Shown here: piece by piece, positions 28,608 to 50,030 of the stretch
Layout of the letters: every line of letters begins with the position of its first letter
Position numbering within the stretch: position 1 is the stretch's first letter
Assembly: GCA_963753435.1 (NCBI GenBank)
Contig: CAVWCF010000001.1
Location: 1,536,001-1,600,000, forward strand
DNA: 64,000 bases
Reading direction: 5' to 3'
Source: an uncultured Actinomycetota bacterium
Lineage (GTDB): Bacteria; Actinomycetota; Actinomycetes; CAVWCF01
Translations under genes and position numbers: made by a program
The notes under the pieces: generated by a model
Told to the model about the DNA's origin: nothing
What the model saw: only the letters and a program-made list of their open reading frames with translations
Database searches by the model: none

Positions 28608-29266
28608 CAGGTCCCCTCCATCACCAACTCAGAGGATGCGCGGACCTTCCGCCACACCCGCCACGCCCCGAACGCGAAAGCGCCTTGAGCGACGGTGTTC
28701 ACGCTCTGCTCCGTCCACTGCAGCGCGAGGGTCTGCTCCTCGAAACTCTGCAGCCGGGTCAGCACGAACACACCGGCCAACTGAACAGCGAAGGCCACAA
28801 CTGCGGCAGGGTCCTTGGTCCGTACTGCCCAGGTAATCGCGAGGATGGTCGTGGTGAGGCTGGCCAGGACGGCGATTCCAAACAGCGGGACGACGTCGCC
28901 GATGGCGAATGCGCCGATCGTCGCCACCGCCAGTACCGCGGCGAACGGCCACCAGGGCAGCAACTTCGAACGCAGCCCGGACCAGACCGCCCACGCCACC
29001 AACGTGAACCCGAAGGACAGCAGTGGGAACAGGAACTCGTCGATGATCGTGTCCGGCCCGCCGGACGCCACGATCAGCTTCCAGGTGGCCTTGGAGGCCC
29101 CGCCGGCCACCAACAGCACCACGCCCAGGTAGCCGACTCGGGCGACCTCGGGTACCCGGCTGATCGCCGTGCGCACGAGTAGCAGGCAGCCCAGTCCGCT
29201 CAGCAGGACGGGGACGTAGTCCTCCAGCGCCAGCGGGATCGTGTAGCCGTACGGATTCGCGTCCAT
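28607..29266 (-). CDS. Hypothetical membrane protein (~7 TM)
   Basis: Hydrophobic helices; 1-nt overlap with the downstream gene. Confidence 0.75.
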   Translation of the reverse strand: MDANPYGYTIPLALEDYVPVLLSGLGCLLLVRTAISRVPEVARVGYLGVVLLVAGGASKATWKLIVASGGPDTIIDEFLFPLLSFGFTLVAWAVWSGLRSKLLPWWPFAAVLAVATIGAFAIGDVVPLFGIAVLASLTTTILAITWAVRTKDPAAVVAFAVQLAGVFVLTRLQSFEEQTLALQWTEQSVNTVAQGAFAFGAWRVWRKVRASSELVMEGT

Positions 29267-31945: not shown

Positions 31946-31956
31946 GAAGTTCTCCT

Positions 31957-33222: not shown

Positions 33223-33274
33223 CGGTCTTTCCTCCTGTGGGGGCCGGTTGGGTCGGCCGGTCGTCGGTAAATGC

Positions 33275-34270
33275 TCACCCGGTTGCCGCCGGAGCGCGAC
33301 GGACCAAGGTCACTAGTTCGTCCCGGGTATCGGAACGCTGCACCAAGCGGGCTCCCGCGTCGGGGTCCTGCAGCACCGCATGGCGCAGGAAGTCGATCAT
33401 GAGGCCGGCCATGGATTCCCGCGCGGCGACCGGGTCGGCGATCGCCGCACCGTCCAGGAATCCGCGCGCGCACGTGGGGTCCTCGGGGTCGCCGGGAAGG
33501 AAGTGGTTGGAACCGGTGAAATCGCCCCACCAGGCCTCAACGTCCGGGGAGATCGCGTCGGCGAACGTCCGCTCGACCGGGTTCTGGCGCTCCTGGCCCT
33601 CCTGGCCGTAGCGAACCGCCGAGGCGGCCATGATCCCGTCCTCGGTCCCGGACATCAGCAGCACCGGTACGTCGACCGGGGAGGCCAGCAGCGCGCCAGG
33701 TTCGTAGCCGAGGACCGTCGCCGGCTGCGTGTGCGCACCGAACGTGGCGGCGGCCATCAGCTCGGGGAACCAGCGGCGGCTGGCCGACTGCAGCGTGATC
33801 GTGCCTCCGGCCGAATGGCCGAACAGCGCGACCCGGCCGGTGTCCAGGACATCAGGGAACGGCCCGGTGGCGTTCGCTTCGGCCACCGCGTCCAGGATCG
33901 AACGCAGGGCGCCGGCGGGCGGGCTTTGCCCGTAGGTGTCCGGCGTGATCGCACCCAGGTCGATGCCTGGGGAGATGCCGAACTGGCCGGGCATCAGATC
34001 GGTGACCAGGTCGAAGGTGACCGCGGCAAACCCGGACTCGACCAGCCGGATCGCCAGCCAGCGGTAGGCGTCCTGCCCGACATTCACCCCCGGCATGATC
34101 ACCACCACCGGGTACGGCGCGCCGGAGCGGTCCGCGGGGATGAACCCGCTCATCCGTTCCGCCAGCGAACCGGTGAACTGCGCGGGGTAGTAGATCTTCA
34201 GGTGCGCGGTGTCGAACGGCGCCGGTGCCCCGGGAACCCGGGTCGCCCACCAGAACGAGCGAACAGTCAC
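33275..34270 (-). CDS. Alpha/beta hydrolase, chlorophyllase/dienelactone hydrolase-like
   Basis: KIYYPA, PYPVVVIMPG, D..RVALFGHSAGG, PVLLMSG.ED, G.NH. Confidence 0.75.
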   Translation of the reverse strand: MTVRSFWWATRVPGAPAPFDTAHLKIYYPAQFTGSLAERMSGFIPADRSGAPYPVVVIMPGVNVGQDAYRWLAIRLVESGFAAVTFDLVTDLMPGQFGISPGIDLGAITPDTYGQSPPAGALRSILDAVAEANATGPFPDVLDTGRVALFGHSAGGTITLQSASRRWFPELMAAATFGAHTQPATVLGYEPGALLASPVDVPVLLMSGTEDGIMAASAVRYGQEGQERQNPVERTFADAISPDVEAWWGDFTGSNHFLPGDPEDPTCARGFLDGAAIADPVAARESMAGLMIDFLRHAVLQDPDAGARLVQRSDTRDELVTLVRRAPAATG

Positions 34271-34328
34271 TGGTGGGCTGACCTCCGTCGGTTGCGCAGT
34301 CCCGCGGGTGCGGGACCCATGCTCTGGT

Positions 34329-35141
34329 TCAGGCGCCGGCGTGGGGCAGCACGCGCTGCGACCCGGTGAGCGCCACAACCAGTTTGTCCACGATCTCCTT
34401 GCCGAACAGCCGCTCGCCCACGGAGTTGGCCGGGTCGAGCTCGGCGATCCGGCTACGCATGTCGATGGTGTGCTGCAGCATCGCCGGCTGCTCGTCGGCG
34501 GGCACCGGGTCGGCGTTGTCCCACCAGGACAACCACAGGTCCAGTTTGTCGCTGGCCTGCTTCATGATGATGTCGACGGTCTCCTGCGTCATGGGACCGG
34601 AGTAGCAGAAGGCGGTGGGGCTGGTGACCGCGCGGATGTAGGCCATCGGGCTGGTGAACCAGTCCAACTGCGGGTTGTTGCGGCGGGTCTCCAGCCACTC
34701 CTCGTTCTGGGACTCGAAGTACTTGAAGTGGTAGTCGGTGTTCGTGCACAGGTCCCGGCGGGGCAGGTGGTCGATGTACGCCCACGGCCGCGCGCCGAAG
34801 TTGGCGAACGCCATGCCGAAGAACGGGATGTCCGTCTGCGGTCCGGGGGAGATGGTCAGGTGCAGGTTCGCGAACCCACCCTTGGGGTCGGCCATCCAGG
34901 AGTAAACGAGCCAGTCGATCTCGGGGCCGGCGAAGCACTGCACCTGCCCGTGGATGCCGGAACCGATCTCGCCGGCGACCTCGAGGCCGTTGGTGGACGG
35001 GTCCTGCTTGAGCTCGAACCTTTCGTTGACCTTGGCCATGAGCTTGGCCAGTTCGTCGCGCCACTGCTCGTAGATCCAAGTGACGTCGATCGGGCCGGAC
35101 TCGTCGATGAGTTCCTGGACCGTGCTGAGCGTTTCGCCCAC
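34329..35141 (-). CDS. Red chlorophyll catabolite reductase (RCCR)-like protein
   Basis: IDWLVYSW, DHLPRRDL..N.DY..KYF, FTSPMAYIRAVTSPTA and RLFGKEIVDKLV parallel, in the same order, the plant RCCR motifs as recalled: IDFVIGSW, DLPHRKDLVLNPDYL, YVSPSLFVRSAFSPTA, RMFGEEV. Confidence 0.8.
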   Translation of the reverse strand: MGETLSTVQELIDESGPIDVTWIYEQWRDELAKLMAKVNERFELKQDPSTNGLEVAGEIGSGIHGQVQCFAGPEIDWLVYSWMADPKGGFANLHLTISPGPQTDIPFFGMAFANFGARPWAYIDHLPRRDLCTNTDYHFKYFESQNEEWLETRRNNPQLDWFTSPMAYIRAVTSPTAFCYSGPMTQETVDIIMKQASDKLDLWLSWWDNADPVPADEQPAMLQHTIDMRSRIAELDPANSVGERLFGKEIVDKLVVALTGSQRVLPHAGA

Positions 35142-36097: not shown

Positions 36098-37835
36098 TCA
36101 GTTGGTGATTGCGTCCATCAGTTGCCACGGACGGCCGTCGACCAGGTCGGTGCCGCGGGAGACCATGCGGTTGGTCGCTTGCGCGGGGGACACCTCCACC
36201 AGCGTGATCTCGGCGTTCGGGTCGACCAACACCGGGTCGGGACGGGAGATCACCCCGTTGAACGGCTCGGTGCGCTCGGTGGACCAGAGCGTGAACTCGC
36301 CACTGAGCGGGATCACCACGCTGGCACCGGCCGGACCGGGACGGGTCGCCGCGACCAGGTTCAGTCGATTCTCCGCAGCGCGCTCCACCAGACCGGTCCG
36401 TAGTTCCCAGGACTCCGCAACGCTGAACGGCAGCGCAACCACGTCGGCGTCCGCCAGCGCCGCCAGCCGGAACGTCTCCGGGTAGACCGCATCGTCACCG
36501 ACGACCAGCGCCAGGCGGCCCCACGGCAGCTCGACGATGTTCAGGCCGTCACCGAGGTCAGTGACCCAGCGGATGCCGGGCGACGGCATGCAACTGGCGT
36601 TGCCGGGCCACGATGCCGTCGGCACCGATGAGCACTGCCTCGTGCGCGGCGCCGGCGGGCAGGCTGGTGACCACGTGCGCCGAGCCCGCTACTGCCGCGA
36701 TGGCAGCAACGGCTGCGGCCGACCGGGCCTCGGCCGCGGCGGCGTCCACGTCCACAACGCCCCCGGCGAAGCAGAACAACTCCGGCAGCACGACCAGCTG
36801 AGCGCCGTCGGCGACCGCCTGCGCCACTGCCGTAGCGGCGGCGGGGATGGCGTCGGGTCCGTCGGCGGCGGGCTGAACCACGGCGGTGCGCAGCACCGGT
36901 GACCCCGCGGGAGCCTGCCGGCCCTTGGGGGCGTCGGCGAGCGCGGCGTACAACTCCGGCCGCCGGTTGGCGAACACGTCGGTGCCGTCCGGTCGGGTCT
37001 TGGCATCGGCGAGCGCGACGTCGATGTCGGCCACGACCACCGCCTCACCGGTCAGCGGCCCTTGGGCGACGACAGTGCCATCGGGGGCCACGATCTGGCT
37101 CTCCCCGGCACCGTGTAGCCGCTCCACCGGGACGCCGACACCGGTGCTGACCTGCTCGATGTTGCCCGGCGGGATCAGCGGGCCGACCTTGTTGGCCGCG
37201 ACGATCCAGACCCGGTTCTCCGGGGCGCGCACCGGGATGTGCAGGTTCGCCTCGTCCAGGGCGAAGGAGTTGAGGCTGTTCAGCAGCACCTGCGCGCCGC
37301 GCAGCGCCAGGCCGCGCGGGGTCTCGTTGATGACGCCGTCCATGCAGGAGTACATGCCGAAGCGCGCCAGTTCGGTCTCGACGATCGGACCGGTGCTGAT
37401 CGCGTCGTCCAGGTGCAGGCGCTCGCTGCCCATGAGGACCTGCTTGTCGGAGTCGGCGACGACGGCGCCTTGCGGACTGCACAGCACGTTGGTGCCGGTC
37501 GTGCGGCCGTCCTCGCGGGCGACCACCACGTTGACCATGACGTAGGCGGCGTGCTCCTTGGCCTTGGCGGCGATGGCGCCGACGAACGGCCCGTCGAGGG
37601 TCACGGCCATGCGCCGGGAGTGCTCGCGGTCGTCGTACCAGGACACGTGGTTGCAGAACTCCGGCAGGACGATCACCTGCGCGCCCTCGGCCGCGGCAGC
37701 GTCGATCATGCGCAGGCAGGTGGCGAGGTTCTCGTCAACGTCCGTGCCGACAGCGAACTGGACTGCGGCCACCCGTAGGTGGCCGTGCGCCGGCGTTTCG
37801 CCGTCGACGGAGCGCACCACCACCGGCTCGCTCAC
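36098..37835 (-). CDS. Two-domain carbon-nitrogen hydrolase (nitrilase superfamily), +1 frameshift near 36570
   Basis: Domain 1 has LPEF/DKQ/SCMDG (E-K-C triad). Domain 2 has LPEL/RQLH/VGDD and RAAENR. One extra C separates ARHP from WVTDLG. Confidence 0.82.
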
Positions 37836-38743
37836 GCGGCCGCCTTCGGGAAGTCCCCTGCCTTGCTGACCAGAGCGGGGGTTGGTCGGCCCATCACCTC
37901 GCCGAGCCAGTCGGAGGCTGCGATCAGCGCTTCCAGGTCCGTGCCGGTTTCGTAGCCGCTGCGGTGCAGCAGGTAGACGAGGTCCTCGGTGGCGATGTTG
38001 CCGGTGGCCTTGGGGGCGAACGGGCAACCGCCGATGCCGCCCAGGCTGGCGTCCAGGACCGTCACGCCGTTCTCCACTGCGGTCAAGGCGTTGGCGTAGC
38101 CGGTGTTGCGGGTGTTGTGGAAGTGGGCGCGCAGTTGCACGTCGCCGATCGCGGCCTTGACCGCGGTCACGCGTTCGCGAACGTCCGGCGGTACCGCGAC
38201 CCCGATGGTGTCCGCCAGCGCGATCTCGTCGACGCCGATGCCGGCGATGCGCTCGGCCATGGCAACGATCCGTGAAACCGGCACCTCGCCCTCGAAGGGG
38301 CAGCCGAAGGAAGCACCGATGGTCACCGACGTCTTCAGGCCGGCGGCGCGAGCCAAGGGCGCGATCTTCTCGACGCCGTCGATCGTCTCGTCGGAGGTCA
38401 TGTTCTGGTTCTTGCCTGCGAACGTGTCCGTGCTTACGACGACCAGGTTGATCTCGTCCACCCCGGTCGGCTGGGCGCGCACAAACCCGCGCTCGTTGAC
38501 CACCAGGCCGATGGCGGAGAAGCGGTCGCGGTCCGGTCGGGCCGCCAGTCCGGCCATGACTTCCTCGGCGTCGGCCATCTTCGGGACGGCCTTGGGGCTC
38601 ACGAACGAAGTGGCCTCTGCGCGCCGGATGCCGGCGTCGAAAGCGCGGTTGATCAGCTCGACCTTCTGCGCCGTCGTCAGGTCGGCGGGGTCGTTCTGCA
38701 GGCCGTCGCGCGCGGCGACCTCGACGATCTGAACGGCGGTCAT
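37832..38743 (-). CDS. Hydroxymethylglutaryl-CoA lyase family protein
   Basis: EV.ARDGLQN, SFVSPK.VP.MAD, LADTIG, HFHNTR, GGIGGCPFAP.ATGN. Confidence 0.92.
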   Translation of the reverse strand: MTAVQIVEVAARDGLQNDPADLTTAQKVELINRAFDAGIRRAEATSFVSPKAVPKMADAEEVMAGLAARPDRDRFSAIGLVVNERGFVRAQPTGVDEINLVVVSTDTFAGKNQNMTSDETIDGVEKIAPLARAAGLKTSVTIGASFGCPFEGEVPVSRIVAMAERIAGIGVDEIALADTIGVAVPPDVRERVTAVKAAIGDVQLRAHFHNTRNTGYANALTAVENGVTVLDASLGGIGGCPFAPKATGNIATEDLVYLLHRSGYETGTDLEALIAASDWLGEVMGRPTPALVSKAGDFPKAAA

Positions 38744-38854
38744 CTCCGGGATCCTCCTGCTGTTGCGGTCAAGCGCGGCACGCCCCAGCGGGGCTGCGGC
38801 AGCGAAGCGATCCTAGACTCGGCGATCAGATCGCCTAGGCCCGGGGAGGACCCG

Positions 38855-39136
38855 TTGATCACCCACGTCGTGCTGATGAAGTTCGCCGACTCTGCCAACG
38901 CCGCCGAGACCAAGAGCCGCTTGGAAGCGCTACCGGCGACGATCCCGCACATCAAGACGTTGCACGTCGGGCTCGATGTGATCCGCAGTGAGGTCTCCTT
39001 CGACCTGTGCCTGACCACGACCCACGACTCGGTTGAAGAGCTGAAGGCCTACCAGGGTCACCCCGATCACCTTGAGGTCGGCGCCTGGCTGCGCCCGTTG
39101 CTGGAAGCGCGCGCCACCGTCGACTACGAGTCCTGA
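38855..39136 (+). CDS. Dabb family stress-responsive alpha/beta barrel protein
   Basis: ITHVVLMKF, L...IP.I, Y..HPDH, VDY. Confidence 0.85.
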   Translation: MITHVVLMKFADSANAAETKSRLEALPATIPHIKTLHVGLDVIRSEVSFDLCLTTTHDSVEELKAYQGHPDHLEVGAWLRPLLEARATVDYES

Positions 39137-40590
39137 CCGGCGGTCTGGTCCTTCATCGGGATGGCGCCGGCCACTCCCACGTCGTGGGCGATGTCCTCGT
39201 CCGCGGCGTAGCGGTTCGGGATGATGCTCTTGCGCACGATCAGGCCGTAGATGGCGACGATGCCGGCCATGATGCCGAACAGAACGAACGGGGCGGCCGG
39301 TCGCCAGGCGTCGAACAGGATCCCGCCGACACCTAGCGCGATCATGATCCCCACCCCGCCGAACAGGGCGAACATGCCGATCACCGCGCCCCGGATCATC
39401 GGCGGCGCCTGTTCGGCAACGAGCACGTTGCTGGAGATGACTGCGCTCACCTGGCCCACGCCGATCAGCGCGGCGATTGCGAAGCCTTGGGCGCTGAACG
39501 GGTCGGAGATGGCCAAGGTGGCCGTGTAGCCGATCGCGGTGACCACCAGGGAGATGATCACGGCGTCCGTGCGGCCGATGCGGTCGGCGAGTATGCCCGT
39601 GACCGGTGCGGCCAGCAGCGCGGTGCCGTTGGCGACCGCCAGCAGGATCCCGGCCTTGGCCGTCGCCTCGCCGGTGGTCAGGCCGATGCTCTCGCCGTAC
39701 TGCTGCGCCCACAGGATCAGGAAGGCGCCCACCAGCGCCAGGTCGGCGCGAGCGACGAACGCTGCGGCGTAGGACAGGGAAAGGCCGGAGTCCTTGCCGG
39801 CCTTGAGGCCCTTGCCCACCAACTCGCGGATGGAGGGTTCGTCGGTCCGGGCGAACGCCTTGCCGCCGCGCAGCCCGACCCGCATGAGCACCGCTGTCAT
39901 GGCGGCCAGTCCCGCACCGACGAGGTACGTGGCGCGCAGCGCGGCGACCTCGCCGAGCCCGGCGCTCTCAAAGACGCTGGGGAGTTGCAGCAGCGCGGTG
40001 AACGTGATCAGTGCACCGATCCCGTTTGCGAAGCCCAGGATGCCGTTGGCCGTACCGCGCGTTTCGTCCCGCACGTAGTCGGTGACGATGGCGGTGATCA
40101 TCCCGGTGATGATGGCGATACCGATGCCGGCGACAGCCCGAGACGCGGTCAAGGACAAGACGTTGCCGACGAACGGGGTCAGCCCGATGCCGAGTGCGAT
40201 GAGGGCGTAGCCGAGAACCGCGACCGGGCGGCGCCCAACGCGGTCGGACCACGCGCCGGAAACCGCGACGACAACGATGAGGATGATCTCGCCCACCAGG
40301 CCGAGCAGGCCGGTGATGCGGCCTTGCTCGTCCTCGGGGATCTCCAGGATTGTCGTCAGCAGCCCGGCCTGCAGCGCGGGGACGAGCGTGAACAGCATGA
40401 TCGACGACAACGCCAGCCAGTAGTACGTGGCGACGTTGCCGCGAGTGGTGCCGCGGGTCAGCTTCAGTGGACCGAACTTCGGTGCGACCGCAGTGGCCGT
40501 ACCGCCGGTGCCCCCGTCGGCGGCGGGCGCCGATGCGTCCGGTTTGTCGCTAGCGGGTGGCTCGCCGCCACCTGCGCTGTGTCGTCCCAC
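39124..40590 (-). CDS. MFS transporter
   Basis: 12 TMs; G.WSDRVGRR and LADRIGR motif A. Confidence 0.9.
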   Translation of the reverse strand: MGRHSAGGGEPPASDKPDASAPAADGGTGGTATAVAPKFGPLKLTRGTTRGNVATYYWLALSSIMLFTLVPALQAGLLTTILEIPEDEQGRITGLLGLVGEIILIVVVAVSGAWSDRVGRRPVAVLGYALIALGIGLTPFVGNVLSLTASRAVAGIGIAIITGMITAIVTDYVRDETRGTANGILGFANGIGALITFTALLQLPSVFESAGLGEVAALRATYLVGAGLAAMTAVLMRVGLRGGKAFARTDEPSIRELVGKGLKAGKDSGLSLSYAAAFVARADLALVGAFLILWAQQYGESIGLTTGEATAKAGILLAVANGTALLAAPVTGILADRIGRTDAVIISLVVTAIGYTATLAISDPFSAQGFAIAALIGVGQVSAVISSNVLVAEQAPPMIRGAVIGMFALFGGVGIMIALGVGGILFDAWRPAAPFVLFGIMAGIVAIYGLIVRKSIIPNRYAADEDIAHDVGVAGAIPMKDQTAGQDS

Positions 40591-40663
40591 GCTGTCCCCC
40601 TCGGATCCAGTTGCGACAGTCTGCCGTGCTGGCAACTGACGCGCTCGCCGAACCCCCTTCTCG

Positions 40664-40786
40664 GCACAGAGCCGCTCTCATAGGGCTCCACCGGAACGGT
40701 GCCGCACAGTGGCGTGGTTCGCCGAGACGGGCGCGCAGCAGTGAGCGGCTGAATTGCGGCCTAGCGCTATGAGAGCGGCTCTGTGC
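40664..40786. repeat. Inverted-repeat element, family A (REP doublet/MITE-like)
   Basis: Perfect 20-bp terminal inverted repeats GCACAGAGCCGCTCTCATAG / CTATGAGAGCGGCTCTGTGC. Confidence 0.8.
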
Positions 40787-40789
40787 GGG

Positions 40790-42232
40790 TTAGGTACCGG
40801 GGTAGGCGGTTGCGCTCGTCGGCGTCTCGGCGCCGGGGCGGAAGGCCGCCGGCGCGTTCACCACGCAGGTCTGCACGTACTCCAGCAGCCCCTCGTCGCC
40901 GTACTCGCGGCCGAAGCCGGAGCGCTTCACGCCGCCGAACGGCGCCCGCAGCGCCATCCCGGTCCGGTTGTGAGTGTTGATGAACCGGAACCCGGCTTCG
41001 AGCCGCTGGGCGACCGCGAAGGCGTGCTCCTCATCGGCCGACCACACCGACGCACCCAAGCCCAGGTCACCGGCGTTGGCCCGGCCGATGACCTCATCCT
41101 CGGTGTCGAATACCTGGATCGGTACCAGCGGTCCGAACTGCTCCTCGGCCACCAGTCGGGCAACGTCGGGTAGGCCGGTGACGAGCGCCGGGCGAACGAA
41201 GTACCCCTCGTCCAGCAGTTCCTGGTCCGGCACCGACCCCAAGTCAACGGCCCTGCCCCCGGCGGCTACCGATTCCGCTCGCAGGCCGAGCAGCCGGTCG
41301 CGGGCAGCGGCGTTGATCACCGGGCCCATCGTCACGCCTTCCGCCAACGGATCGCCGACCACAAGCACCTCGGCAGCGGCGGCAGTGAACGCCTCCACGA
41401 ACTCCTCGAACCGGGACGCGTGCACGTACAGCCGCTTGCTGGCCATGCACACCTGGCCGCTGGTGGCGAAGGTGGCGATCACGGCCCGCGCCATGGCCGC
41501 GTCATCGATGACCGCGTCGGCGAGGAACACCGCCGGGTCGTTGCCACCCAGTTCCATGACGGTCGGGGTGATCCGCTCCGCCGCAGTGCGACCGATTGCC
41601 GTCGCCGTCACCCCGCCGCCGGTGAACGCGATCTTGCGGGTGAGTTCATGCCCCACGAGCGCAGCCCCGGCTTCGGCGTCACCGTGAATGACCTGCAGCA
41701 GTCCGGCGGGCAGCCCGGCCGCCACCTGCGCATAGAGATCTGTCACCGCCAGCGGTGCCAGCGGGGACGGCTTGACCACGATCGAGTTGCCCGTGACCAG
41801 AGCCGGAGCCACCTTGAGCATTGACAGGATCACCGGTGCGTTCCACGGCGTGATCGCGGCTACGACGCCGTACGGCACGTGCTGCAGCAGCATCCGCCCG
41901 CTGGCGTCGTCCACCTCCGAGTCGGTCACGACCTCCGGAGCGCGATCGGCGACGAACCCACCGAACATCCGCGCAAAGCCGATCTCGCCGCGGCAGTCCG
42001 GCAACGGTTTGCCCATCTCCCGGGCGAGCAGGGTCGCGAGCCGATCCGTCTCGGCCTCCAGGGGCGCGAGGGCTGCGCGAACGCGGTCGGCGCGCTCGGT
42101 CAGGGGCAGTTGGGCCCAGTCCCGCTGCGCCGCGTCGGCGGCGCGAACTGCCGTGTCGACGGCGGCCGCATCGGAGGTGGCGACCTCGCCGACGATCTCG
42201 CTGGGATGCGTCGGGTTCTCCCGGACGATCAT
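40790..42232 (-). CDS. Aldehyde dehydrogenase
   Basis: ITPWN, KPS, FTGG, ELGGN, GQVC, EQFGP, PFGG.K.SG. Confidence 0.93.
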   Translation of the reverse strand: MIVRENPTHPSEIVGEVATSDAAAVDTAVRAADAAQRDWAQLPLTERADRVRAALAPLEAETDRLATLLAREMGKPLPDCRGEIGFARMFGGFVADRAPEVVTDSEVDDASGRMLLQHVPYGVVAAITPWNAPVILSMLKVAPALVTGNSIVVKPSPLAPLAVTDLYAQVAAGLPAGLLQVIHGDAEAGAALVGHELTRKIAFTGGGVTATAIGRTAAERITPTVMELGGNDPAVFLADAVIDDAAMARAVIATFATSGQVCMASKRLYVHASRFEEFVEAFTAAAAEVLVVGDPLAEGVTMGPVINAAARDRLLGLRAESVAAGGRAVDLGSVPDQELLDEGYFVRPALVTGLPDVARLVAEEQFGPLVPIQVFDTEDEVIGRANAGDLGLGASVWSADEEHAFAVAQRLEAGFRFINTHNRTGMALRAPFGGVKRSGFGREYGDEGLLEYVQTCVVNAPAAFRPGAETPTSATAYPGT

Positions 42233-42267
42233 CACGCCTCCTGTTTTCCGCGCCGCTGCTGAGCTGA

Positions 42268-43011
42268 TCAGAACTGCCGCAGCAGGCTGCCGGCCCCTTC
42301 GATGCGATCGTCGAAGCCGAGTGTTCGCAGGGTGTGCCACAAGGTGGCGGCGTTGATGGCGATGACCGGCTTGCCCAAGTAGCCCTCAAGTGCATCGGCC
42401 TGTGCCACGAACGACAAATTGGTGCCCACCTGCACGACGGCGTCGACGTCGGGGGCGTCGATCGCCCGGATCGTTTCGCCGATCTCAGCCGGGGTGACCT
42501 CGGCGATCGCGGTGGCCGACTTGCACCGCAGCCCGGTGATGGCGGCCACGTCGAAACCGGCCTCAGTGAAGTAGCGACCGACCTCGACATCGGCGATCGG
42601 TTGGTACGGCGAGAACACCGAGATCCGCTTCGCACCGAACTTCTGCAGGGCCTCGGAACAGGACCGGGCTCCGGTGGAGACCCGTAGGCCGGTCTGGTCG
42701 TGGATTCGCTGCTCGAACGCGGCATTTCCGGCCACTCCGCCCCAGAACGTCTCCGCGGACATGCCCATCAGCATGTAGTCGGGCTTGCACGTCATCACCG
42801 AGTCGACGGCGTCGGTGATCGAGGCGCGGATCTGGGTCAGGAGCGCCGTGAAGTCCGCGTCTGAGGCGAGGTCGGGCTCGGTGATGAGCATGCGCCCGGC
42901 GTGAAACGTCACGCCGGGAGGTCGCAGCACCGCCAGGTCGTGCTCGACCACCGTGTTCGTCGAAGGGACGATCGCGGCGATCTTGGCCCGCCAGCCGGTG
43001 ACGTCGGGCAT
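42268..43011 (-). CDS. Maleate isomerase/arylmalonate decarboxylase homologue (paralog of 27861)
   Basis: VPSTNTVVE, MGMSAETFWGG, SPYQP, QVGTNL, KPVIAINAAT. Confidence 0.85.
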   Translation of the reverse strand: MPDVTGWRAKIAAIVPSTNTVVEHDLAVLRPPGVTFHAGRMLITEPDLASDADFTALLTQIRASITDAVDSVMTCKPDYMLMGMSAETFWGGVAGNAAFEQRIHDQTGLRVSTGARSCSEALQKFGAKRISVFSPYQPIADVEVGRYFTEAGFDVAAITGLRCKSATAIAEVTPAEIGETIRAIDAPDVDAVVQVGTNLSFVAQADALEGYLGKPVIAINAATLWHTLRTLGFDDRIEGAGSLLRQF

Positions 43012-43015
43012 CGCC

Positions 43016-44215
43016 TCAGACGATCCCGCGCTCGGTCAGGTCGGCCACGTCGTCGGCGGACTTGCCCAGCACCTCGGTCAGGACCTCGTTGGTGTGCTCG
43101 CCGAGCTCCGGACCCACCCAGCGGACCTTGCCCGGGGTTTCCGACATCTTCGGCGCGGTGTTCTGCATGGCGATCTCGCCGTATTCGGGGTGCATGATCC
43201 GGATGATCGCCTCGCGCGCGGCGAAGTGCGGGTCGGCCAGCATCTCCGGGGCGCGGTACACCTTGCCGCAGGGGACACCCGCCTCGGCCATGATCTTCTC
43301 GACGTCCTCGGCGGTGTGCTGCCGCGTCCACGCGGAGACGATCTCGTCGAGTTCCGTCTGGTTCTCACCGCGAGCGGCGTGCGTCTTGTAGCGGGGGTCC
43401 TCAGCCAGTTCCGGCTGGCCCATCGCCTCGGCCATGCGGGCGAAGACGGTGTCCTGGTTGCCCGCGATCAGGATGTCCGCGCCTTCGGAGGTCGGGTAGG
43501 CGTTCGACGGCGCGATCTTCGGCAGGATCGAGCCGGTGCGCGGTCGGATGTAGCCGGAGACGTCGTAGTCGGTAACCAGCGACTCCATGACGTTGAGCAC
43601 GGCCTCATACAGCGTGGAGTCGACCACCTGACCCTTGCCGGTGCGCTCGCGGTGGTGCAGCGCCATCATCCCGCCGAGCGCTGCGTGGATTGCCGCCAGC
43701 GTGTCGCCGATGGAGATGCCGGCGCGCGCCGGCGGCCGGTCCGGTTCGCCGGTCACGTAGCGGAGTCCACCCATCGCCTCGCCGATGGCGCCGTAGCCGG
43801 CCTGCTTGCTCATCGGGCCGGTCTGGCCGAAGCCGGACACGCGCAGAATGATCAGGCCGGGGTTGTCCTCCCACAGGACCTCGGGTGCCATGCCCCAGCG
43901 CTCCAGCGTCCCGGGGCGGAAGTTCTCAATGAGGATGTCCGCGGTCTTGATCAGGTCCTTGGCCAGTTGCTGACCCTCCTCCTCGCGGAGGTTGATCGTC
44001 ACCGACTTCTTGCCGCGGGCGACCACGCTCCACCACAGGGCCTTGCCGTCAACGCGCTCCCGGCCCCACTGCCGCATCGGGTCGCCGGTGCCGGGGGCTT
44101 CGACCTTGATGACCTCAGCACCGAAGTCGGCGTACAGCTGCCCGGCGAACGGGCCGGCCAGCAGTTGGCCCATCTCGACGACGCGCAGGTCGGTCAGGGG
44201 TCCGGTGTGAGTCAT
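43016..44215 (-). CDS. CaiB/BaiF family III CoA-transferase
   Basis: GPL..LRVVE, AGP, GAEVIKVE, ENFRPG, SGFGQTGP, GD, LGEHT. Confidence 0.93.
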   Translation of the reverse strand: MTHTGPLTDLRVVEMGQLLAGPFAGQLYADFGAEVIKVEAPGTGDPMRQWGRERVDGKALWWSVVARGKKSVTINLREEEGQQLAKDLIKTADILIENFRPGTLERWGMAPEVLWEDNPGLIILRVSGFGQTGPMSKQAGYGAIGEAMGGLRYVTGEPDRPPARAGISIGDTLAAIHAALGGMMALHHRERTGKGQVVDSTLYEAVLNVMESLVTDYDVSGYIRPRTGSILPKIAPSNAYPTSEGADILIAGNQDTVFARMAEAMGQPELAEDPRYKTHAARGENQTELDEIVSAWTRQHTAEDVEKIMAEAGVPCGKVYRAPEMLADPHFAAREAIIRIMHPEYGEIAMQNTAPKMSETPGKVRWVGPELGEHTNEVLTEVLGKSADDVADLTERGIV

Positions 44216-44368
44216 GACGGCTCCTTGCTTGGTGTGTGCACCGGTGCTTGCGTGGATCGGGGGTGATTGTGTCCGGCGCCACGATGGGCACAACCGGCGG
44301 GGTTGACGCCCGCCGGGCGGTCCGCGCGTCAAGCGCAGCGGACCGCCCAGCGGGTCCTGGGCGAGCGG

Positions 44369-45865
44369 TCAGCCGGCCAAGTGGCCGGCCAGCATCCCCT
44401 CGACCCCCACGACCCGTGTGTTGCAGAAGAACTGAAACGTCTCCGCGGTCCCCTCCTCCGCGTAGCCGCTCAGTCCCCAGGCGGGACGTGGAGCCATGAT
44501 GTCCAGGCTGAGCACCGTGGACCCGTTTACCTTCACCCCGCCGGCGTGGACCTGGCGGGCGACGTTCATCGCCCGGTCGGTGTCCGTGCCGAACACGTAG
44601 CCCTCCAGGCCGTACGGGGTGCCGTTGGCCAAAGCGATGGCTTCGGCGTCGGTTCGGAACTGGTGCACCGTGGCAACCGGTCCGAAGATCTCGTGCAGGG
44701 CGTCCTCCGGGGAGACGCCCGTGACCAAAGTCGGCGACAAGAAGTAGCCGGGCAGGTCCGGCAGGTTGCCGGGGGCGACGACGGTGCCACCGGCGGAGTC
44801 CAACTCGGCGATGCGGTCCTGCAGCAACGCCAGGTGGGCTGCGTGCACCATCGGGCCGAGGTCGGTGTCCAGCGACAGGCTGTCCCCGATGCGCAGCGCC
44901 GCGATCTTGTCCGCCATCGCGGCCACCAGGTCGTCGGCCAGTGACTCGTGCACGATCAGACGGCCCAGCGCCCGGCACCACTGGCCGTTCAACTGGGTCA
45001 GCAGGTCAACCGCGCCCTGGGCGGCGTACTCGACGTCGGCGTCCTCCAAGACGACTACCGGGTTGTTGCCGCCCAGTTCCAGCTGTGCCGGCTTCATGTC
45101 GTAGGCGCAGGCGGCAGCGATGGCCCGCCCGCCAGCCAAACCACCGGTGAAGGAAACCGCCCGGATCCGCGGGTCCTGGACCAGGGTCGCGCCCTGCTTG
45201 GGTCCACCTTGGATCAACTGGAAGGTGCCGGCGGGGGCCCCGGCGGCGTCCAGGGCTTCGGCGATGGTCTCGGCCAGCACGGAGGTGCCCAGCGGCGCGT
45301 ACTCGCTGGGCTTGAGGATCGTGGGGCAGCCGGCGGCCAGCGCGTTGGCGACCTTGTGCGCGGCCATCGGCGCCGGGGCGTTCCACGGCACCAGGCAAAG
45401 CGCCGGGCCGAACGGCAAGCGGTGTACCTCGACCTCGTTGCCGGACTCGGCGGTGATGCTCGAGTTGGTCCACCCGGACCGAAGCTGCATGGCGGCCAGG
45501 CGGAACGAGCCGCCATTGATGATCGTCAGCATGCCGGTCATCCGGCGGATCGCACCGGTGCCCAGTGACTCCAGGTCGGCGATGCGATCGGCGACCGGGT
45601 CCAGCGCGTCGGCAACCGCCTCGAGGATTCCGGCGCGCTCGTCGGCGCTGAGCCCGGACCAGTCTCCGGCCGCGTGCAGGTTGCTGGCGGTGTCGGCAAC
45701 TGCCTCCAGCGCATCGTCTGCGGTGGCGACCTGTTTGCCGATCAGTTCGGCGGTGTTGGGATTGTGCAGTTCACCGCCCAGGTCGGTCGACGGATCGGCC
45801 CACTGTCCGTTGACGAGTTCCCGCAGTGCGGGGACCTCGACGTTTTGCGACGGTGTCGCGGTCAT
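44369..45865 (-). CDS. Aldehyde dehydrogenase
   Basis: VPWN, KPSE, FTGG, ELGGN, GQWC, EIFGP. Confidence 0.93.
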   Translation of the reverse strand: MTATPSQNVEVPALRELVNGQWADPSTDLGGELHNPNTAELIGKQVATADDALEAVADTASNLHAAGDWSGLSADERAGILEAVADALDPVADRIADLESLGTGAIRRMTGMLTIINGGSFRLAAMQLRSGWTNSSITAESGNEVEVHRLPFGPALCLVPWNAPAPMAAHKVANALAAGCPTILKPSEYAPLGTSVLAETIAEALDAAGAPAGTFQLIQGGPKQGATLVQDPRIRAVSFTGGLAGGRAIAAACAYDMKPAQLELGGNNPVVVLEDADVEYAAQGAVDLLTQLNGQWCRALGRLIVHESLADDLVAAMADKIAALRIGDSLSLDTDLGPMVHAAHLALLQDRIAELDSAGGTVVAPGNLPDLPGYFLSPTLVTGVSPEDALHEIFGPVATVHQFRTDAEAIALANGTPYGLEGYVFGTDTDRAMNVARQVHAGGVKVNGSTVLSLDIMAPRPAWGLSGYAEEGTAETFQFFCNTRVVGVEGMLAGHLAG

Positions 45866-46470
45866 TTGTTCTCCTCGCGATAGACGGTCGTCTGGGCTGA
45901 CCCGTCGTGCACCGGTCCGTCCGCACCGCGGGGGTCCCACGGCAACCGACGGGTCGGGTCTTCGCTGATGCGGGTCGCGTTGGCGGTGAGGGTACGGACC
46001 AGCACACCGTGCCGGTACAGCGCGGTAGTCCGCGTGCGCTGGTCGCTGCCGAGGTAGCGGACCCAGTCCGGCTCGGCGTAGCGGGCGGCGGGGCCGTCCA
46101 GCCGCGTCGGTCCGAAGACGACTGTTCCGGGACCGGCGCTGACCCCGACGATGTCCGGCGCCCCTTCGGGGAGGTCGAAGTGCAGGACCCCATCGACGAT
46201 GCGGCCGGTGAAGGTTCGCGTGTGGGCCGGGCGGCCGCGGACTACCACGTTGGTCTGCTGGTAGTCGTCGCCGTCCAGGTCCAGGTACACGAGTTGTTCG
46301 AAAGGCAGCGGCCCCGGACGCGCAGCTTCGGGGTCGTCGGTGAGCTCAGTGCCGTCGCAGTCGTAGCCGGCTACGTGCTCGTGCCACACGCCGCGCAGCA
46401 GCCGCAGGGTCTGTGCCACCGAGGCTGACTCAGCGGCGCCCTGGGTCTGCGCGTGTGTGGTCGTACTCAC
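45862..46470 (-). CDS. Hypothetical protein (possible beta-barrel)
   Basis: Translationally coupled (ATGA) in the operon; begins L.GVW; beta-strand pattern. Confidence 0.65.
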   Translation of the reverse strand: MSTTTHAQTQGAAESASVAQTLRLLRGVWHEHVAGYDCDGTELTDDPEAARPGPLPFEQLVYLDLDGDDYQQTNVVVRGRPAHTRTFTGRIVDGVLHFDLPEGAPDIVGVSAGPGTVVFGPTRLDGPAARYAEPDWVRYLGSDQRTRTTALYRHGVLVRTLTANATRISEDPTRRLPWDPRGADGPVHDGSAQTTVYREENK

Positions 46471-46483
46471 CGCCGGCTACGAG

Positions 46484-47759
46484 TCACTTCTCGTTGATGG
46501 TGGTGAAGCCGCCCCAGCCCTGACCGTCGACGATCATCTTCGCCAGGTCGAGCTTGCCGCGCTCGGCCGGGAATGCTTGCAGCAGGCCCATCGAGGCGTC
46601 GCGGAAGTTACGGCCGATCTCGTTGTCCATGAGTGCGCCGGACGTGCCGCACATCTTCAGCGCCAGGGTGGTCACGTCGAACGAACGCTCACACACCGTG
46701 CCCTTGGTCAGCCGCCACATCTTCACGACGTCCTGCTTGGACATGAGCTCGGGGTCCGCGGTCTCCAACTGCACCTGCCGGCGTCCCCACAGGTGCGCGT
46801 CCTCCAGCGCCTGCTCCGCCTCACCGATCAGCACCTGGTGCATCGGGGAGGAGGCAACCGACTTGCCGGTGTCGGCGAACGGGGTGTTCATGACCTTGTT
46901 GAGGGCGTACTCGTAGGCGCCGCGGGCGATGCCGATGTAGATCGCGCCGATGGCGACCTGGTTGCCGACCCATGAGCCGCGCGCCACCTTGGTGGCCGTC
47001 ATGAATGCGCCGGGGATGGTCAGCGCCATGTCGTCGGGGACGAAGCAGTCCTCCAGGACGATGCCGTGGTTGCCGCTGGCCCGCATGCCCAGGCCGTTCC
47101 AGTTGATGCGTGCGCGCACGCCCTCCTTGCGGCGATCTACGAGGAACAGTGCCAGCGACTCCATGCCTTCGTAGTCGGCGCAGGCGCGCGGTGACCATGT
47201 AGTAGTCGGCGGTGTCGGTGAGGCAGCCGAAGGACTTCTCCCCGTTCAGCAGCCAGCCGCCGTCGGTCTTGGTGGCGGTGGTGCGGATGAGCACGTTGGC
47301 GTTCTCGGCTTTGACGGCCTCGGACGCGAAGTTGCCGATCCATTTGCCCTCGGCACCCATCAGCGTCAGAACCTTCTCGCCGAAAGCCCGGACTGTGGGC
47401 ACGTCCTTCTCGTCGTACAGGCCGGCGTCGATGGCGCCGAGCGGCAGCAGGCCGCGCGAACTCGACGAGCAGTGGAAGAAGTACGCAAGCGCGGTTGAGC
47501 CGCAGGCGGTCCCAAGCGCGTAGGTGGTGGCGGCCAGGTCACGCAACGTGCCGCCCATGCCGCCGTACTCGGTCGGCACGACCAGGCCGAGCAGGCCGGA
47601 CTCGCTGAACATCTTCAGGTGCCGCTCGGGGAACTCCGCCCTGGCGTCAGCCTCGGCGGCGGCCTCACGCACTGCCGGAAGGATCGAGTCGACGACCTCC
47701 TGGCGTGCCCGCTCCTCGGGCGTCAGGTCCTCAATGAGTCGTTCTGCGGTCAGGGCCAT
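46484..47759 (-). CDS. Acyl-CoA dehydrogenase-fold flavoprotein (possible two-component monooxygenase), +1 frameshift near 47181
   Basis: VP.EYGGMG, GGWLLNGEKSF, WNGLGMRASG, A.YIGIARGA, R.FRDA. One extra C splits TARL from ADYEGMESL. Confidence 0.85.
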
Positions 47760-47768
47760 GTCTGCTCC

Positions 47769-49058
47769 CTAGGTGGTGACGGCCGGTGTTGGCAGGGTGC
47801 CGGTGCGGGACCGCAGCGGCGCGTTGCTGATGTGAGCGAGTGCGGTCGCCGCCTGCAGGACTGCGTCGCGATCGGCGGGCGCAGAAACCTCGAGGGTGGC
47901 GATCAGGTAGAGCAGGTCTTCCAGCGGCGAAACCCCGTCGAGGCCGCCGAGCGTTGCGTGGAACCGGCGCACTCCGCTCTTCAGTGCGGTGAGCGCGTTG
48001 GCCAGCGCCAATCCGGTGGAGTCACCCAGACGCAGCGCCAACGGCACCGGCCGGACGCGCGGTACCGCCTCTTGAAGGAACACCCGCATCGACAGCGGGT
48101 TGGCCGCGGACGTGGAGTCATCGAGGCAGATCTCGTCGACCCCGAGGGCGGCAACGCGCTCGCAGGCGGCGATCGCCTCCTCCTGGTCTGCGCTGAAGAC
48201 GTTTCGCAGCGTTACCGAGACCGCCAGTTCGGCCGCCTTCGCGGCGGCGACGAGCGACTCCACTTCGGCAACATCGCCGTTGACGTCGGCCACCACCTCG
48301 GCGACACCGATGCCTAGGTCGGCGGCCCGGGCGACGTGCTCGGGCGCTGCGATCACCGCGGTGGCAGTGCCCGGCCCGGCGTCCCGGTCGGCGCCGAGGA
48401 CGGCAAGTTCCAGGTCGGTCGGTGGGTGGCCGGCCAGGTCCAGAACCCGGACTGCCACTCCGGCGGCGCGCAATGTGCTGACCACCTCGGTCACCCGACC
48501 CGGGGCCGCCCCGGCGCGACGCAGCACCTCGGTGGTGCCGGTGTCCATGACTGCGGCGTCCTCCGGCAGTAGGTCTGCGAACTGGCCCCAGGCGCGGGAG
48601 TGGAACAGGAGTGGAGCCGTCAACCTCGGGGTGTCCGCGGCGAGGACCTCACCCACGAAGATCGTGTGGTCGCCACCGTCATATGCGTGCCGCACCTCGC
48701 AGTCCAGCCAGGCCAGCGCGTCGGGGATGAGCGGTGCGCCGGTGGCGGCGGTCTTGGCTTGCACGTCGAAGAACCGGTCAGTCACCTCCGGCTGCTGCCC
48801 GGCGAAGCGCTTGCCCAGGTGCGCCTGGTCCTTGGCGAGGATGTTCACGGCAAAGTGCCCGCTCGCCTCGATCAGCGAGTGCGTGAAGATGGTTTTGGCC
48901 AGGCACACCGAAACCAGCGGCGGGTCCAGGCTGACGCTGCTGAATGAGCTGGCCGTCATGCCGTGCAAGGTGCCGTCGTCGGCGGTGGTGGTGACGACGG
49001 TGACGCCGCTAGGCCACTGGCCAAGAGCCGAACGGAACGTCGCGGCGTCGATGGGCAC
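47769..49058 (-). CDS. Flavin reductase (HpaC-like) fused to degenerate HMG-CoA-lyase-like barrel
   Basis: FRSALG.W.SGVTVVTT, SSFSSVSLDPPLV, GGDHTIFVGEV; then EICLDDSTS.ANP, GLALANAL.A, TLGGL.G, EDLLY. Confidence 0.8.
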   Translation of the reverse strand: MPIDAATFRSALGQWPSGVTVVTTTADDGTLHGMTASSFSSVSLDPPLVSVCLAKTIFTHSLIEASGHFAVNILAKDQAHLGKRFAGQQPEVTDRFFDVQAKTAATGAPLIPDALAWLDCEVRHAYDGGDHTIFVGEVLAADTPRLTAPLLFHSRAWGQFADLLPEDAAVMDTGTTEVLRRAGAAPGRVTEVVSTLRAAGVAVRVLDLAGHPPTDLELAVLGADRDAGPGTATAVIAAPEHVARAADLGIGVAEVVADVNGDVAEVESLVAAAKAAELAVSVTLRNVFSADQEEAIAACERVAALGVDEICLDDSTSAANPLSMRVFLQEAVPRVRPVPLALRLGDSTGLALANALTALKSGVRRFHATLGGLDGVSPLEDLLYLIATLEVSAPADRDAVLQAATALAHISNAPLRSRTGTLPTPAVTT

Positions 49059-49244: not shown

Positions 49245-50030
49245 GTGGCCGCCGAGCCCACCAAGCCGAAGTCGAGTCAGTCGATCGCCGCGGTCGAGCG
49301 CGCCCTCGACGTCCTCCTGCTCTTCGTGAACACCGGCTCCAAGGATCTGGGCGTAACCGAGATCTCCGGCGAACTCGGCCTGTCCAAGGCGGCCGTCCAC
49401 CGAATCCTGACGTCGTTGCGGTCCCGGGACCTGGTCAACGTCGACGAAGACAGCCGCCGCTACACGCTCGGGCCCGGTGCGCTGGCCCTGGGCCAGGCGT
49501 ACCTGTCCCGTCTGGACATCCGGGCGCTGGGCCGACCCGAGTTGGAGGCTCTCTCCGCGGCCACCCGCGAGACGGCCACCATGTCGCTGCGATCGGGGAC
49601 GCAGCGGGTGTACGTGGCCCAGGTGGTGCCGCCACGCGAGGTGCGCATGGAGGTACCTCTGGGTGTGCCGTATCCGATTCACGCTGGCGCCAGCAGCAAG
49701 GCCTTCCTGGCATTTCTGCCGCCCACGGAGTTGGAGCCGCTGCTCACCGGATCGCTGCCCAAAGTGACGCCGGAGACCGTGACCGACCCGGTCGAGCTGC
49801 GCAAGGAGTTGGCCGAGATCCGCGCCCGTGGTTACGCGCTAAGCCTCGGGGAGCGGCAGGCCGGCGCCGGTTCGGTGGCCGCACCGATCCGGGATGCGGA
49901 CGGCTACCCGGTGGCTGTGGTCAGCGTGAGCGGGCCGCTGGACCGTTTCGCCGAGGAGGTGCCGCAGTGCACCGACCTGCTGCTCGCGGCGGTGAAACGC
50001 CTGTCCAGCCGCATGGGCTACCGCGGCTGA
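49245..50030 (+). CDS. IclR family transcriptional regulator
   Basis: VERALDVL, GVTEIS..LGLSKAAVHRIL, ETA, HAGASSKA, RGYA, SVAAPI, SVSGP. Confidence 0.95.
   Translation: MAAEPTKPKSSQSIAAVERALDVLLLFVNTGSKDLGVTEISGELGLSKAAVHRILTSLRSRDLVNVDEDSRRYTLGPGALALGQAYLSRLDIRALGRPELEALSAATRETATMSLRSGTQRVYVAQVVPPREVRMEVPLGVPYPIHAGASSKAFLAFLPPTELEPLLTGSLPKVTPETVTDPVELRKELAEIRARGYALSLGERQAGAGSVAAPIRDADGYPVAVVSVSGPLDRFAEEVPQCTDLLLAAVKRLSSRMGYRG

Follow-up and report, generated by a model that had tools for sequence, protein, structure and literature searches.

A gene block tied to an RCCR-like/Rieske operon in an uncultured actinobacterium: candidate lower arm of a bacterial tetrapyrrole catabolic pathway

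Gene content and organization of the locus

The genome of an uncultured Actinomycetota bacterium (2.17 Mb, 98% complete) carries a run of ten minus-strand genes, read from position 49058 to 36098 of a 64,000-nucleotide stretch of contig CAVWCF010000001.1, which we refer to as the window. Next to this block lies a second minus-strand operon (27861-35141) encoding a Rieske oxygenase and proteins related to the plant red chlorophyll catabolite reductase (RCCR), and we analyzed the block as a candidate lower arm of tetrapyrrole breakdown. Based on open reading frame (ORF) listing and family scans, all ten families that an earlier note had named for the run were recovered in the order given there. 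The block, with its flanking regulator and one inserted gene, is composed as follows (ALDH, aldehyde dehydrogenase; HMG-CoA, 3-hydroxy-3-methylglutaryl-coenzyme A; MFS, major facilitator superfamily):

49245..50030, plus strand: IclR-family regulator (PF01614/PF09339), divergent from the block; start read from the sequence
47769..49058, minus strand: flavin reductase (PF01613, E 4e-48) with a degenerate HMG-CoA-lyase-like domain (PF00682)
46484..47759, minus strand: acyl-CoA-dehydrogenase-fold flavoprotein, 424 amino acids (family scan); frame restored at about 47180
45862..46470, minus strand: calycin-type beta-barrel protein of the BFA1/DUF3598/CpeS group, 202 amino acids (predicted structure)
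44369..45865, minus strand: ALDH1 (family scan), catalytic Glu and Cys motifs intact
43016..44215, minus strand: family III CoA-transferase (PF02515), actinobacterial version
42268..43011, minus strand: protein of the maleate-isomerase/arylmalonate-decarboxylase fold (PF17645)
40790..42232, minus strand: ALDH2 (family scan), actinobacterial version, motifs intact
39124..about 40635, minus strand: MFS transporter (PF07690); longest ORF, true start probably later
38855..39136, plus strand: Dabb-domain protein (PF07876, E 2e-22), 93 amino acids, convergent on the MFS gene
37832..38743, minus strand: HMG-CoA-lyase-family acyl-CoA lyase (NF004283, 298 bits against a cut-off of 246)
36098..37835, minus strand: two-domain C-N hydrolase (PF00795), 578 amino acids; frame restored at about 36571

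The genes for the reductase, flavoprotein, barrel protein and ALDH1 are tightly packed, with gaps of 9 and 13 nucleotides followed by a 4-nucleotide overlap, and the HMG-CoA lyase and C-N hydrolase genes also overlap by 4 nucleotides. Because the plus-strand Dabb gene splits the run between the MFS and lyase genes, the ten genes probably form more than one transcript. A scan of the block found no sigma-70-type promoter, and terminator-like sites within it were no more frequent than in shuffled sequence. The divergent IclR gene has counterparts (57-65% identity) beside the same genes in four other genomes (G098, G166, G113, G149) and is the likely regulator of the block. Plus-strand genes, counted once as one and once as two, separate the block from the RCCR operon. 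One ORF in this interval (35287-35982) is acyltransferase-like, with an HxxxxD motif recognized by eye and no Pfam match; it is absent from that place in the other actinobacterial clusters fetched.

A single extra base interrupts each of two ORFs, that of the flavoprotein at about 47180 and that of the C-N hydrolase at about 36571. These bases are absent from contigs assembled from public sediment short reads, at 47180/1 in three of four runs and at 36570/1 in two of four; the best-matching run may be the source sample, and the other runs give the same result. Without the extra bases, the frames extend over 424 and 578 amino acids with zero internal stops. Both breaks are thus one-base assembly errors, and the short-read contigs together with the uninterrupted corrected frames rule out a reading of the two split genes as pseudogenes.

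Association of the block with RCCR-like genes

To describe the genomic setting of the block, relatives of the barrel protein were collected from GTDB genomes (80 of 119 relatives), and families were counted within 10 kb. These 80 loci belong to Actinomycetota, Chloroflexota, Gammaproteobacteria, Myxococcota, Acidobacteriota, Spirochaetales and Oligoflexaceae. The flavoprotein gene is found at 62 of them, an RCCR-like gene at 59 (41 of the 48 full-length ones), the C-N hydrolase at 40 and the isomerase-fold gene at 28. At the level of whole genomes, 79 of the 80 contain an RCCR-like gene: among the 21 loci with none nearby, 20 genomes carry one elsewhere, 19 of them at E <1e-60. Furthermore, block and operon genes are interleaved, and their order is shuffled over six or more phyla.

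The association was also approached in the reverse direction, in samples drawn by taxon from the class of the genome (301 genomes), from Chloroflexota (201) and from one gammaproteobacterial family (151). Profile cut-offs were E 1e-10 for RCCR-like proteins (1e-30 in the 151-genome sample) and E 1e-80 for the flavoprotein, the latter excluding ordinary dehydrogenases. Both profiles matched identical genomes in each sample, namely 8 of 301, 2 of 201 and 6 of 151, with the eight class positives spanning five families. When the three seed genomes are excluded, 13 of 650 genomes have both genes, 637 have neither and zero are discordant; since kin share genes, these counts are not independent events and carry no p-value. 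In the 151-genome sample, the six genomes matched by the RCCR-like profile were also those matched by the C-N hydrolase profile, and in the class sample the isomerase-fold gene was present in all eight RCCR-positive genomes and in six others.

Two gene fusions tie the modules together. All 36 long homologues of the operon's short-chain dehydrogenase/reductase (SDR) are fusions with a block-type MFS transporter, and a flavin reductase is joined to an HMG-lyase domain. The link to the RCCR operon that the earlier note had suspected is thus borne out by the identical genome sets, the 79 of 80 genomes, the interleaved gene orders and the two fusions, and the block was not found to occur commonly apart from the operon. 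As a whole, we regard the linkage of block and operon as close to certain.

The flavoprotein and its reductase

The flavoprotein, which is the best marker gene of the cluster, contains the N, M and C domains of Pfam acyl-CoA dehydrogenases. Its top PDB relatives, both by sequence and by Foldseek, are 5gj7/5z8t ('flavin-containing monooxygenase') and the nitrososynthases KijD3/DnmZ; with the model of an intact homologue (L009), 5gj7 gave a Z of 38.4 and a root-mean-square deviation (rmsd) of 2.7 over 372 aligned residues. In acyl-CoA dehydrogenases, the Glu of the C-terminal YEG motif is the catalytic base. In the alignment, RDARITQIYEGTS of 4n5f falls on RDAAMGLVQAFPA of the flavoprotein, in which this Glu is not present. 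VQAFP replaces QIYEGT, and QAFP is invariant in 23 of 23 rows, a motif change that rules out an identity as acyl-CoA dehydrogenase. Together with the adjoining flavin reductase gene (PF01613; reductase domain at 26 of 80 loci), the protein is likely a group D-type two-component monooxygenase fed by that reductase, as predicted from sequence. A plasmid search with the flavoprotein yielded zero matches at E 1e-40 among 72,556 records.

The C-terminal HMG-CoA-lyase-like domain of the reductase is devoid of RDGLQ, HxH and GGCP in the window. The same fusion retains HxH and/or GGCP in nine Chloroflexota loci; in that phylum, LeuCD-like and CoA-transferase genes usually come after it, and a hydantoinase-like gene often does.

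The barrel protein

The 202-residue protein that follows the flavoprotein had no assignment in the earlier note and gave zero matches to Pfam, including the CpeS/CpcS family PF09367. It was modeled at a predicted local distance difference test score of 92 as a ten-stranded calycin-type barrel. The closest structural matches are BFA1 (Z 15.3, rmsd 2.9, 145 aligned) and DUF3598 (Z 14.8), followed at lower rank by CpeS (Z 11.5, rmsd 3.5, 145 aligned), nitrobindin (11.2) and UnaG (10.7). Its ESM look-alikes are DUF3598_N and CpeS, and one ESM cluster at 0.90 holds 11% CpeS members. Judged by its model, the barrel is a candidate pigment- or fragment-binding protein or lyase.

Remaining enzymes of the block

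Catalytic motifs are retained in both ALDHs, in the stand-alone lyase and in the N-domain of the C-N hydrolase. ALDH1 is a core gene, present at 44 of 80 loci. ALDH2 has orthologues of 50-62% identity in actinobacterial clusters; the type seen in the window occurs at 3 of 80 loci and a different ALDH at 24. The CoA-transferase has 57-70% orthologues in eight other actinobacterial clusters, with its own type at 5 of 80 loci and a family III enzyme of any type at 25. The MFS gene is present at 34 loci, and its fusion partner in other bacteria is the operon-type SDR. The stand-alone HMG-CoA lyase passes the family cut-off with RDGLQ, HxH and GGCP intact, and putatively acts on HMG-CoA or alkylmalyl-CoA. 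The C-N hydrolase, a predicted amidase or imidase, retains the Glu-Lys-Cys triad in its N-domain (LPEFCNH, DKQ, CMDG); in its C-domain, Asp replaces the Cys (GDD).

The maleate-isomerase-fold protein has the Asp/Glu-racemase-type fold, and its top PDB matches are the maleate isomerases 4fq5 and 2xed (E 4e-13 to 4e-12). Across an alignment of 25 rows, S-x-E-T, Y and G-T-N are nearly invariant and zero Cys are. More specifically, the second-site Cys of maleate isomerases aligns with the Gly of QVGTN, which is Gly in all 25 rows. Cys75 of the window protein was placed at the first site by HMMER with low confidence, in a column that holds Cys in 10 of 25 rows, and the best-kept Cys is Cys163 (21 of 25). 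Because the conserved cysteine pair is missing, the protein is not a standard maleate cis-trans isomerase (NicE/Iso). Arylmalonate decarboxylase uses a single catalytic Cys at the second site; against the corresponding model NF052327 the protein scored 72 bits, under the cut-off of 225, and it has Gly in place of that Cys. Of the earlier description as an isomerase/decarboxylase homologue, the fold (PF17645) therefore stands, and neither the cysteine pair of the isomerases nor the Cys of the decarboxylase is found. Our guess is a cofactor-free decarboxylase or tautomerase.

The partner operon and its neighborhood

The partner operon contains eight minus-strand genes:

34329..35141, minus strand: RCCR-like reductase 1 (PF06405, over cut-off)
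33275..34378, minus strand: alpha/beta hydrolase (longest ORF; PF12740/PF01738), 34 of 80 loci
31957..33222, minus strand: Rieske oxygenase of VanA_C type (family scan), 43 of 80 loci
31172..31945, minus strand: second, divergent RCCR-like protein (weak PF06405, E 8e-4), 39 of 80 loci
30204..31175, minus strand: 323-residue protein (ESM look-alike 0.87, a lead only), 40 of 80 loci
29348..30157, minus strand: SDR, 44 of 80 loci
28607..29266, minus strand: membrane protein (family scan)
27861..28607, minus strand: second maleate-isomerase-fold protein, lacking the cysteine pair, 46% identical to the block copy

Searched with the family profile of RCCR-like protein 1, Arabidopsis RCCR gives an E of 8e-22 and bilin reductases reach 3e-5 at best. 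The 323-residue protein is, from its sequence features, likely a double DUF3598/BFA1-type barrel. The SDR is 41% identical (E 2e-42) to a Cyanophora paradoxa protein with an N-terminal extension, and among the 10 of 150 representatives looked up, homologues were found in a glaucophyte and a red alga (P0317, P0361). Both of these algal groups are without chlorophyll b. A likeness of the SDR to the chlorophyll b reductase NOL/NYC1 is our assumption, unconfirmed by the homologue look-ups, which gave algae and no NOL name.

Paralogues of several of these genes are scattered over the same genome: an amidase with a flavin adenine dinucleotide (FAD) monooxygenase (C1:1349828-1352526), a second Rieske oxygenase with an RCCR-like gene (C1:808492-810215), an epimerase with an RCCR-like gene (C1:1302701-1304344), a third RCCR-like gene (C2:126917-127774), a third isomerase-fold gene (C1:295024) and a second SDR (C1:226801). 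The region C1:62000-90000 contains a second IclR gene (52% to that of the block), CoA-transferases, hydantoinase-like and MmgE/PrpD-like ORFs, the last recognized by eye, and is possibly a second downstream module.

Within the window, a branched-chain-amino-acid-type ATP-binding cassette (ABC) transport system lies 1 kb past the RCCR operon (19571-26850, plus strand) and is a candidate uptake system. One of its ORFs, of 1417 amino acids, combines three parts, a binding-protein-like N-terminus, an MFS domain and an ATPase, and may owe this to a further assembly frameshift. Further along, at 15028-19434, are genes for WxL-domain and WxL-interacting proteins (PF13731, PF06030). These families are known mainly from Firmicutes, and here they are found in an actinobacterium.

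Downstream chemistry in related clusters

Comparison of the related clusters listed 131 families, from which shadow ORFs were dropped by eye, and 34 representatives were sent to Pfam. Isochorismatase-family amidases are present at 22 of 80 loci. In structure they come closest to N-carbamoylsarcosine amidases, 4l07 and 3ot4/3uao, and we take 3ot4/3uao to be maleamate amidases. Other recurrent genes encode FAD monooxygenases (21 of 80), LeuCD-like proteins (19), isocitrate-lyase/PrpB-like proteins (12), hydantoinase-like proteins (10) and chlorophyllase-family proteins (5). Gammaproteobacterial clusters carry TonB receptors. In Pseudomaricurvus, the cluster region includes two PUCC-family transporters (L111:8881-11718) that adjoin another Rieske/SDR pair; its C5-dicarboxylate module (L113:1575-16533) combines MmgE/PrpD, a citrate-lyase-like protein, MaoC and an acyl-CoA dehydrogenase. 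Three unrelated CoA-transferase III subfamilies adjoin HMG-lyase in different phyla; this suggests that CoA-lyase chemistry was recruited repeatedly.

The imidase-, maleamate-amidase-, LeuCD- and lyase-like genes of the related clusters would fit the degradation of dialkyl-maleimides. The earlier proposal of oxygenation, imide hydrolysis and CoA-dependent cleavage thereby gains enzyme types for the imide, maleamate, maleate, malate and CoA-lyase steps. The block itself supplies no hydratase. Hematinic acid and maleimides are actual breakdown products of chlorophyll in leaves and lake sediments, according to the accessible part of PMC7318184.

Proposed pathway

Starting from the observed gene identities, intact frames, motifs, co-occurrence and fusions, we propose that the block forms the lower arm of a bacterial catabolic pathway that would convert a tetrapyrrole, probably of chlorophyll type, to ammonia and central metabolites. 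We assign this reading a probability of about 0.55. A tetrapyrrole as the substrate appears likely in its own right. Hints in this direction are the RCCR-like proteins, which resemble plant RCCR much more than bilin reductases, the presence of CpeS, nitrobindin and UnaG in the fold group of the barrel, and the chlorophyllase-family genes, PUCC-family transporters and TonB receptors of related clusters. We infer the individual substrates and the order of the steps, and likewise that the pigment derives from chlorophyll and not from heme or phycobilin.

By analogy with the plant PAO/RCCR pair, the Rieske oxygenase and the RCCR-like reductases would together account for ring opening and for the reduction of the bridges. 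The MFS transporter would import the pigment or its fragments, to be held by the barrel, as fold and fusion suggest. The ALDHs could then oxidize formyl-pyrrole ends to acids, and the isomerase-fold protein might conceivably decarboxylate or tautomerize these. The flavoprotein and its reductase, whose enzyme type is supported by sequence, would presumably insert oxygen at the alpha-carbon of the pyrrole, which would yield lactams or maleimides, and would also split the bridges. The C-N hydrolase, together with a maleamate-amidase-like enzyme encoded elsewhere in the genome, would open the imide and release ammonia. A hydration, for which the block has no gene, would come next, and the resulting dialkyl-malates would be split by the CoA-transferase and the HMG-CoA-lyase-like enzyme into pyruvate and an acyl-CoA. 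From methyl-ethyl- and hematinic-acid-type rings, the expected products are pyruvate plus butyryl- or glutaryl-CoA.

Several observations weigh against this proposal. No hydratase that would act between an imide-derived diacid and the CoA-lyase is encoded in the block, and elsewhere in the genome the only such matches are an apparent housekeeping leuCD and an aconitase-like protein. The CoA-transferase, ALDH2 and stand-alone lyase of the window are actinobacterial versions that are replaced in other phyla. With respect to ring opening, the PaO domain PF08417 had zero matches in the genome (the control matched 2 of 14 genomes), the top PDB matches of the Rieske protein are SxtT-type and NdmA oxygenases, and no heme oxygenase was found in the genome. 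Staygreen was found neither there nor in 49 cluster genomes, in a search without a positive control. For the flavoprotein, the fold search leaves monooxygenases and dehydrogenases unseparated (Z 38.4 vs 37.5). BFA1 and DUF3598, the closest folds to the barrel, are not known tetrapyrrole binders, a common fold proves no function, and for five of the seven other class positives the cluster stretches that were fetched showed no barrel gene. The kinship behind the co-occurrence counts belongs here as well, as does the isomerase-fold gene in RCCR-negative genomes. One of 293 such genomes, G137 (99% complete), has a tail module with no match to the RCCR-like or flavoprotein profiles (L132:5555-19724: MmgE/PrpD, CoA-transferase, hydantoinase-like protein, FAD monooxygenase, amidase, PrpB-like lyase, isomerase fold and C-N hydrolase); this module may take up small ring fragments or act on a different compound. 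Five more have isomerase-fold homologues at 33-39% identity. Such weaker homologues sit in other settings in the three contexts read, two of them beside TauD, a flavin mononucleotide oxidoreductase and HMG-lyase, and once a CoA-transferase.

Alternative explanations

The block could still be a lower pathway, with another N-heterocycle of indole, pyridine or polypyrrole type as its substrate and the RCCR-fold proteins as repurposed ferredoxin-dependent reductases. The monooxygenase with its reductase, the amidases and the maleate-isomerase fold do resemble parts of the nicotinate maleamate and indole-acetate pathways; in addition, G137 has the tail module by itself, and the Rieske protein differs from PAO in its domain type. 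We nevertheless consider such a substrate unlikely, as many actinobacterial genomes have two to four RCCR-like matches that are closest to plant RCCR, and PUCC transporters, chlorophyllase-family genes and CpeS-group barrels share the clusters. Furthermore, tetrapyrroles are the substrates of those RCCR/FDBR/CPOX-fold proteins that are known (PMC10151467). It is quite unlikely that the core genes only modify or detoxify an intact linear tetrapyrrole by deformylation, end-group oxidation and export, with the CoA-transferase, lyase and ALDH handling, for example, the phytol chain. The flavoprotein, ALDH1, C-N hydrolase, MFS and barrel are indeed steadier than the CoA genes, which vary by phylum, the block is without a hydratase, and plants end at modified phyllobilins in the available part of PMC9306834. 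However, each of the three CoA-transferase III subfamilies adjoins HMG-lyase, in the company of LeuCD-like, PrpB-like, amidase and hydantoinase-like genes that fit nitrogen release and dicarboxylate cleavage, and an isoprenoid carboxylase is absent among the recurrent families.

A biosynthetic or tailoring role of the cluster, with a bilin-like pigment or cofactor as its product, is very unlikely: cyanobacteria do use CpeS-group barrels and bilin reductases in biosynthesis and the closest structures of the flavoprotein include biosynthetic nitrososynthases, but TonB receptors, IclR, amidases, CoA-lyases and dicarboxylate modules typify catabolism, and heme oxygenase and globin are absent among the recurrent families. 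A chance mosaic of generic leucine, aromatic or amino-acid catabolic genes beside the RCCR operon is hardly credible. ALDH, CoA-transferase III, HMG-CoA lyase and MFS are very common families and plus-strand genes separate block and operon; this explanation is largely refuted by the identical genome sets in three samples, the interleaved orders across phyla and the two cross-module fusions.

Significance

In the accessible text of PMC10151467, RCCR-related bacterial sequences serve only as an outgroup, and its supplementary trees may include the RCCR-like proteins described here. A literature search, with subscription papers and supplements outside its scope, found no description of the cluster or of enzymes cleaving tetrapyrroles beyond bilins. 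With some reserve, we suggest that the block may represent the first gene-level lower half of a pathway that fully mineralizes chlorophyll-type tetrapyrroles, in heterotrophs of lakes, seas, sediments and sludge. Equally tentative is its outline, in which the ring would be opened, a new flavin monooxygenase family and CpeS-like barrels would cut the chain to pyrrole or maleimide units, the four nitrogens would leave as ammonia and the alkyl-dicarboxylates would enter CoA-lyase chemistry. If true, the cluster would provide marker genes for the recycling of pigment carbon and nitrogen and would be relevant where maleimides and chlorins serve as biomarkers in sediments. Cultured carriers, namely Parahaliea maris HSLHS9, Thalassotalea mangrovi ZS-4, Alkalimonas cellulosilytica MEB108 and Pseudomaricurvus hydrocarbonicus JCM 30134, make the question of pigment degradation directly testable.

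Comparison with known systems

The components of the proposed pathway belong to known families, and the pathway as a whole is without a described counterpart in the literature covered. Based on the accessible parts of PMC9306834 and PMC7318184, the plant PAO/phyllobilin route (PAO, RCCR, NYC1/NOL, CYP89A9, MES16) stops at linear phyllobilins and has no counterpart of the block. The partner operon shares with it a Rieske oxygenase and reductases closest to RCCR, and also has an esterase and an SDR with algal homologues. Unlike the plant pathway, it comes with at least two RCCR-like proteins per genome, with no PaO domain and with Staygreen unmatched in a search that had no control.

The nicotinate maleamate pathway (NicD, NicF, NicE) and the 2,3-dimethylmaleate route (DmdAB, Dml) follow a shared logic of ring oxygenation, amide hydrolysis and maleate processing, and isochorismatase-family amidases, LeuCD-like and PrpB-like genes recur in the related clusters. 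In contrast to these routes, a molybdenum hydroxylase and NicX are absent among the recurrent families, the maleate-isomerase fold lacks its cysteine pair, the predicted path runs through a CoA-transferase and HMG-lyase, and the tie to RCCR-like genes is strict.

Chloroflexus possesses an (R)-citramalate CoA-transferase/lyase pair. An itaconate/methylsuccinate cluster comprises Ict, Ich, Ccl, Mcd and MmgE/PrpD in the accessible text of PMC12290011, and the Pseudomaricurvus module of MmgE/PrpD, citrate-lyase-like protein, MaoC and acyl-CoA dehydrogenase resembles it. Both systems have in common with the block the same predicted CoA activation of a branched dicarboxylate and retro-Claisen cleavage to pyruvate and an acyl-CoA; the block differs in having no hydratase and a lyase of the HMG-CoA-lyase family.

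As in the block, group D two-component flavin monooxygenases have the acyl-CoA-dehydrogenase fold, an adjoining HpaC-type reductase and no dehydrogenase Glu. Relative to members such as KijD3/DnmZ and DszC, the flavoprotein is at most 27% identical to any solved one and has its own invariant VQAFP. In Table 1 of PMC6165268, group D includes a Rhodococcus pyrrole-2-carboxylate monooxygenase, to which the flavoprotein is likened by class only. Finally, the riboflavin/lumichrome cluster of Nocardioides simplex (PMC12746152) employs a P450, a thiamin enzyme and a xanthine-oxidase type, none recurrent here, and RCCR-like genes are not mentioned in its accessible text; it is likewise actinobacterial, comprises roughly 25 genes and takes a cofactor heterocycle down to pyruvate-level products.

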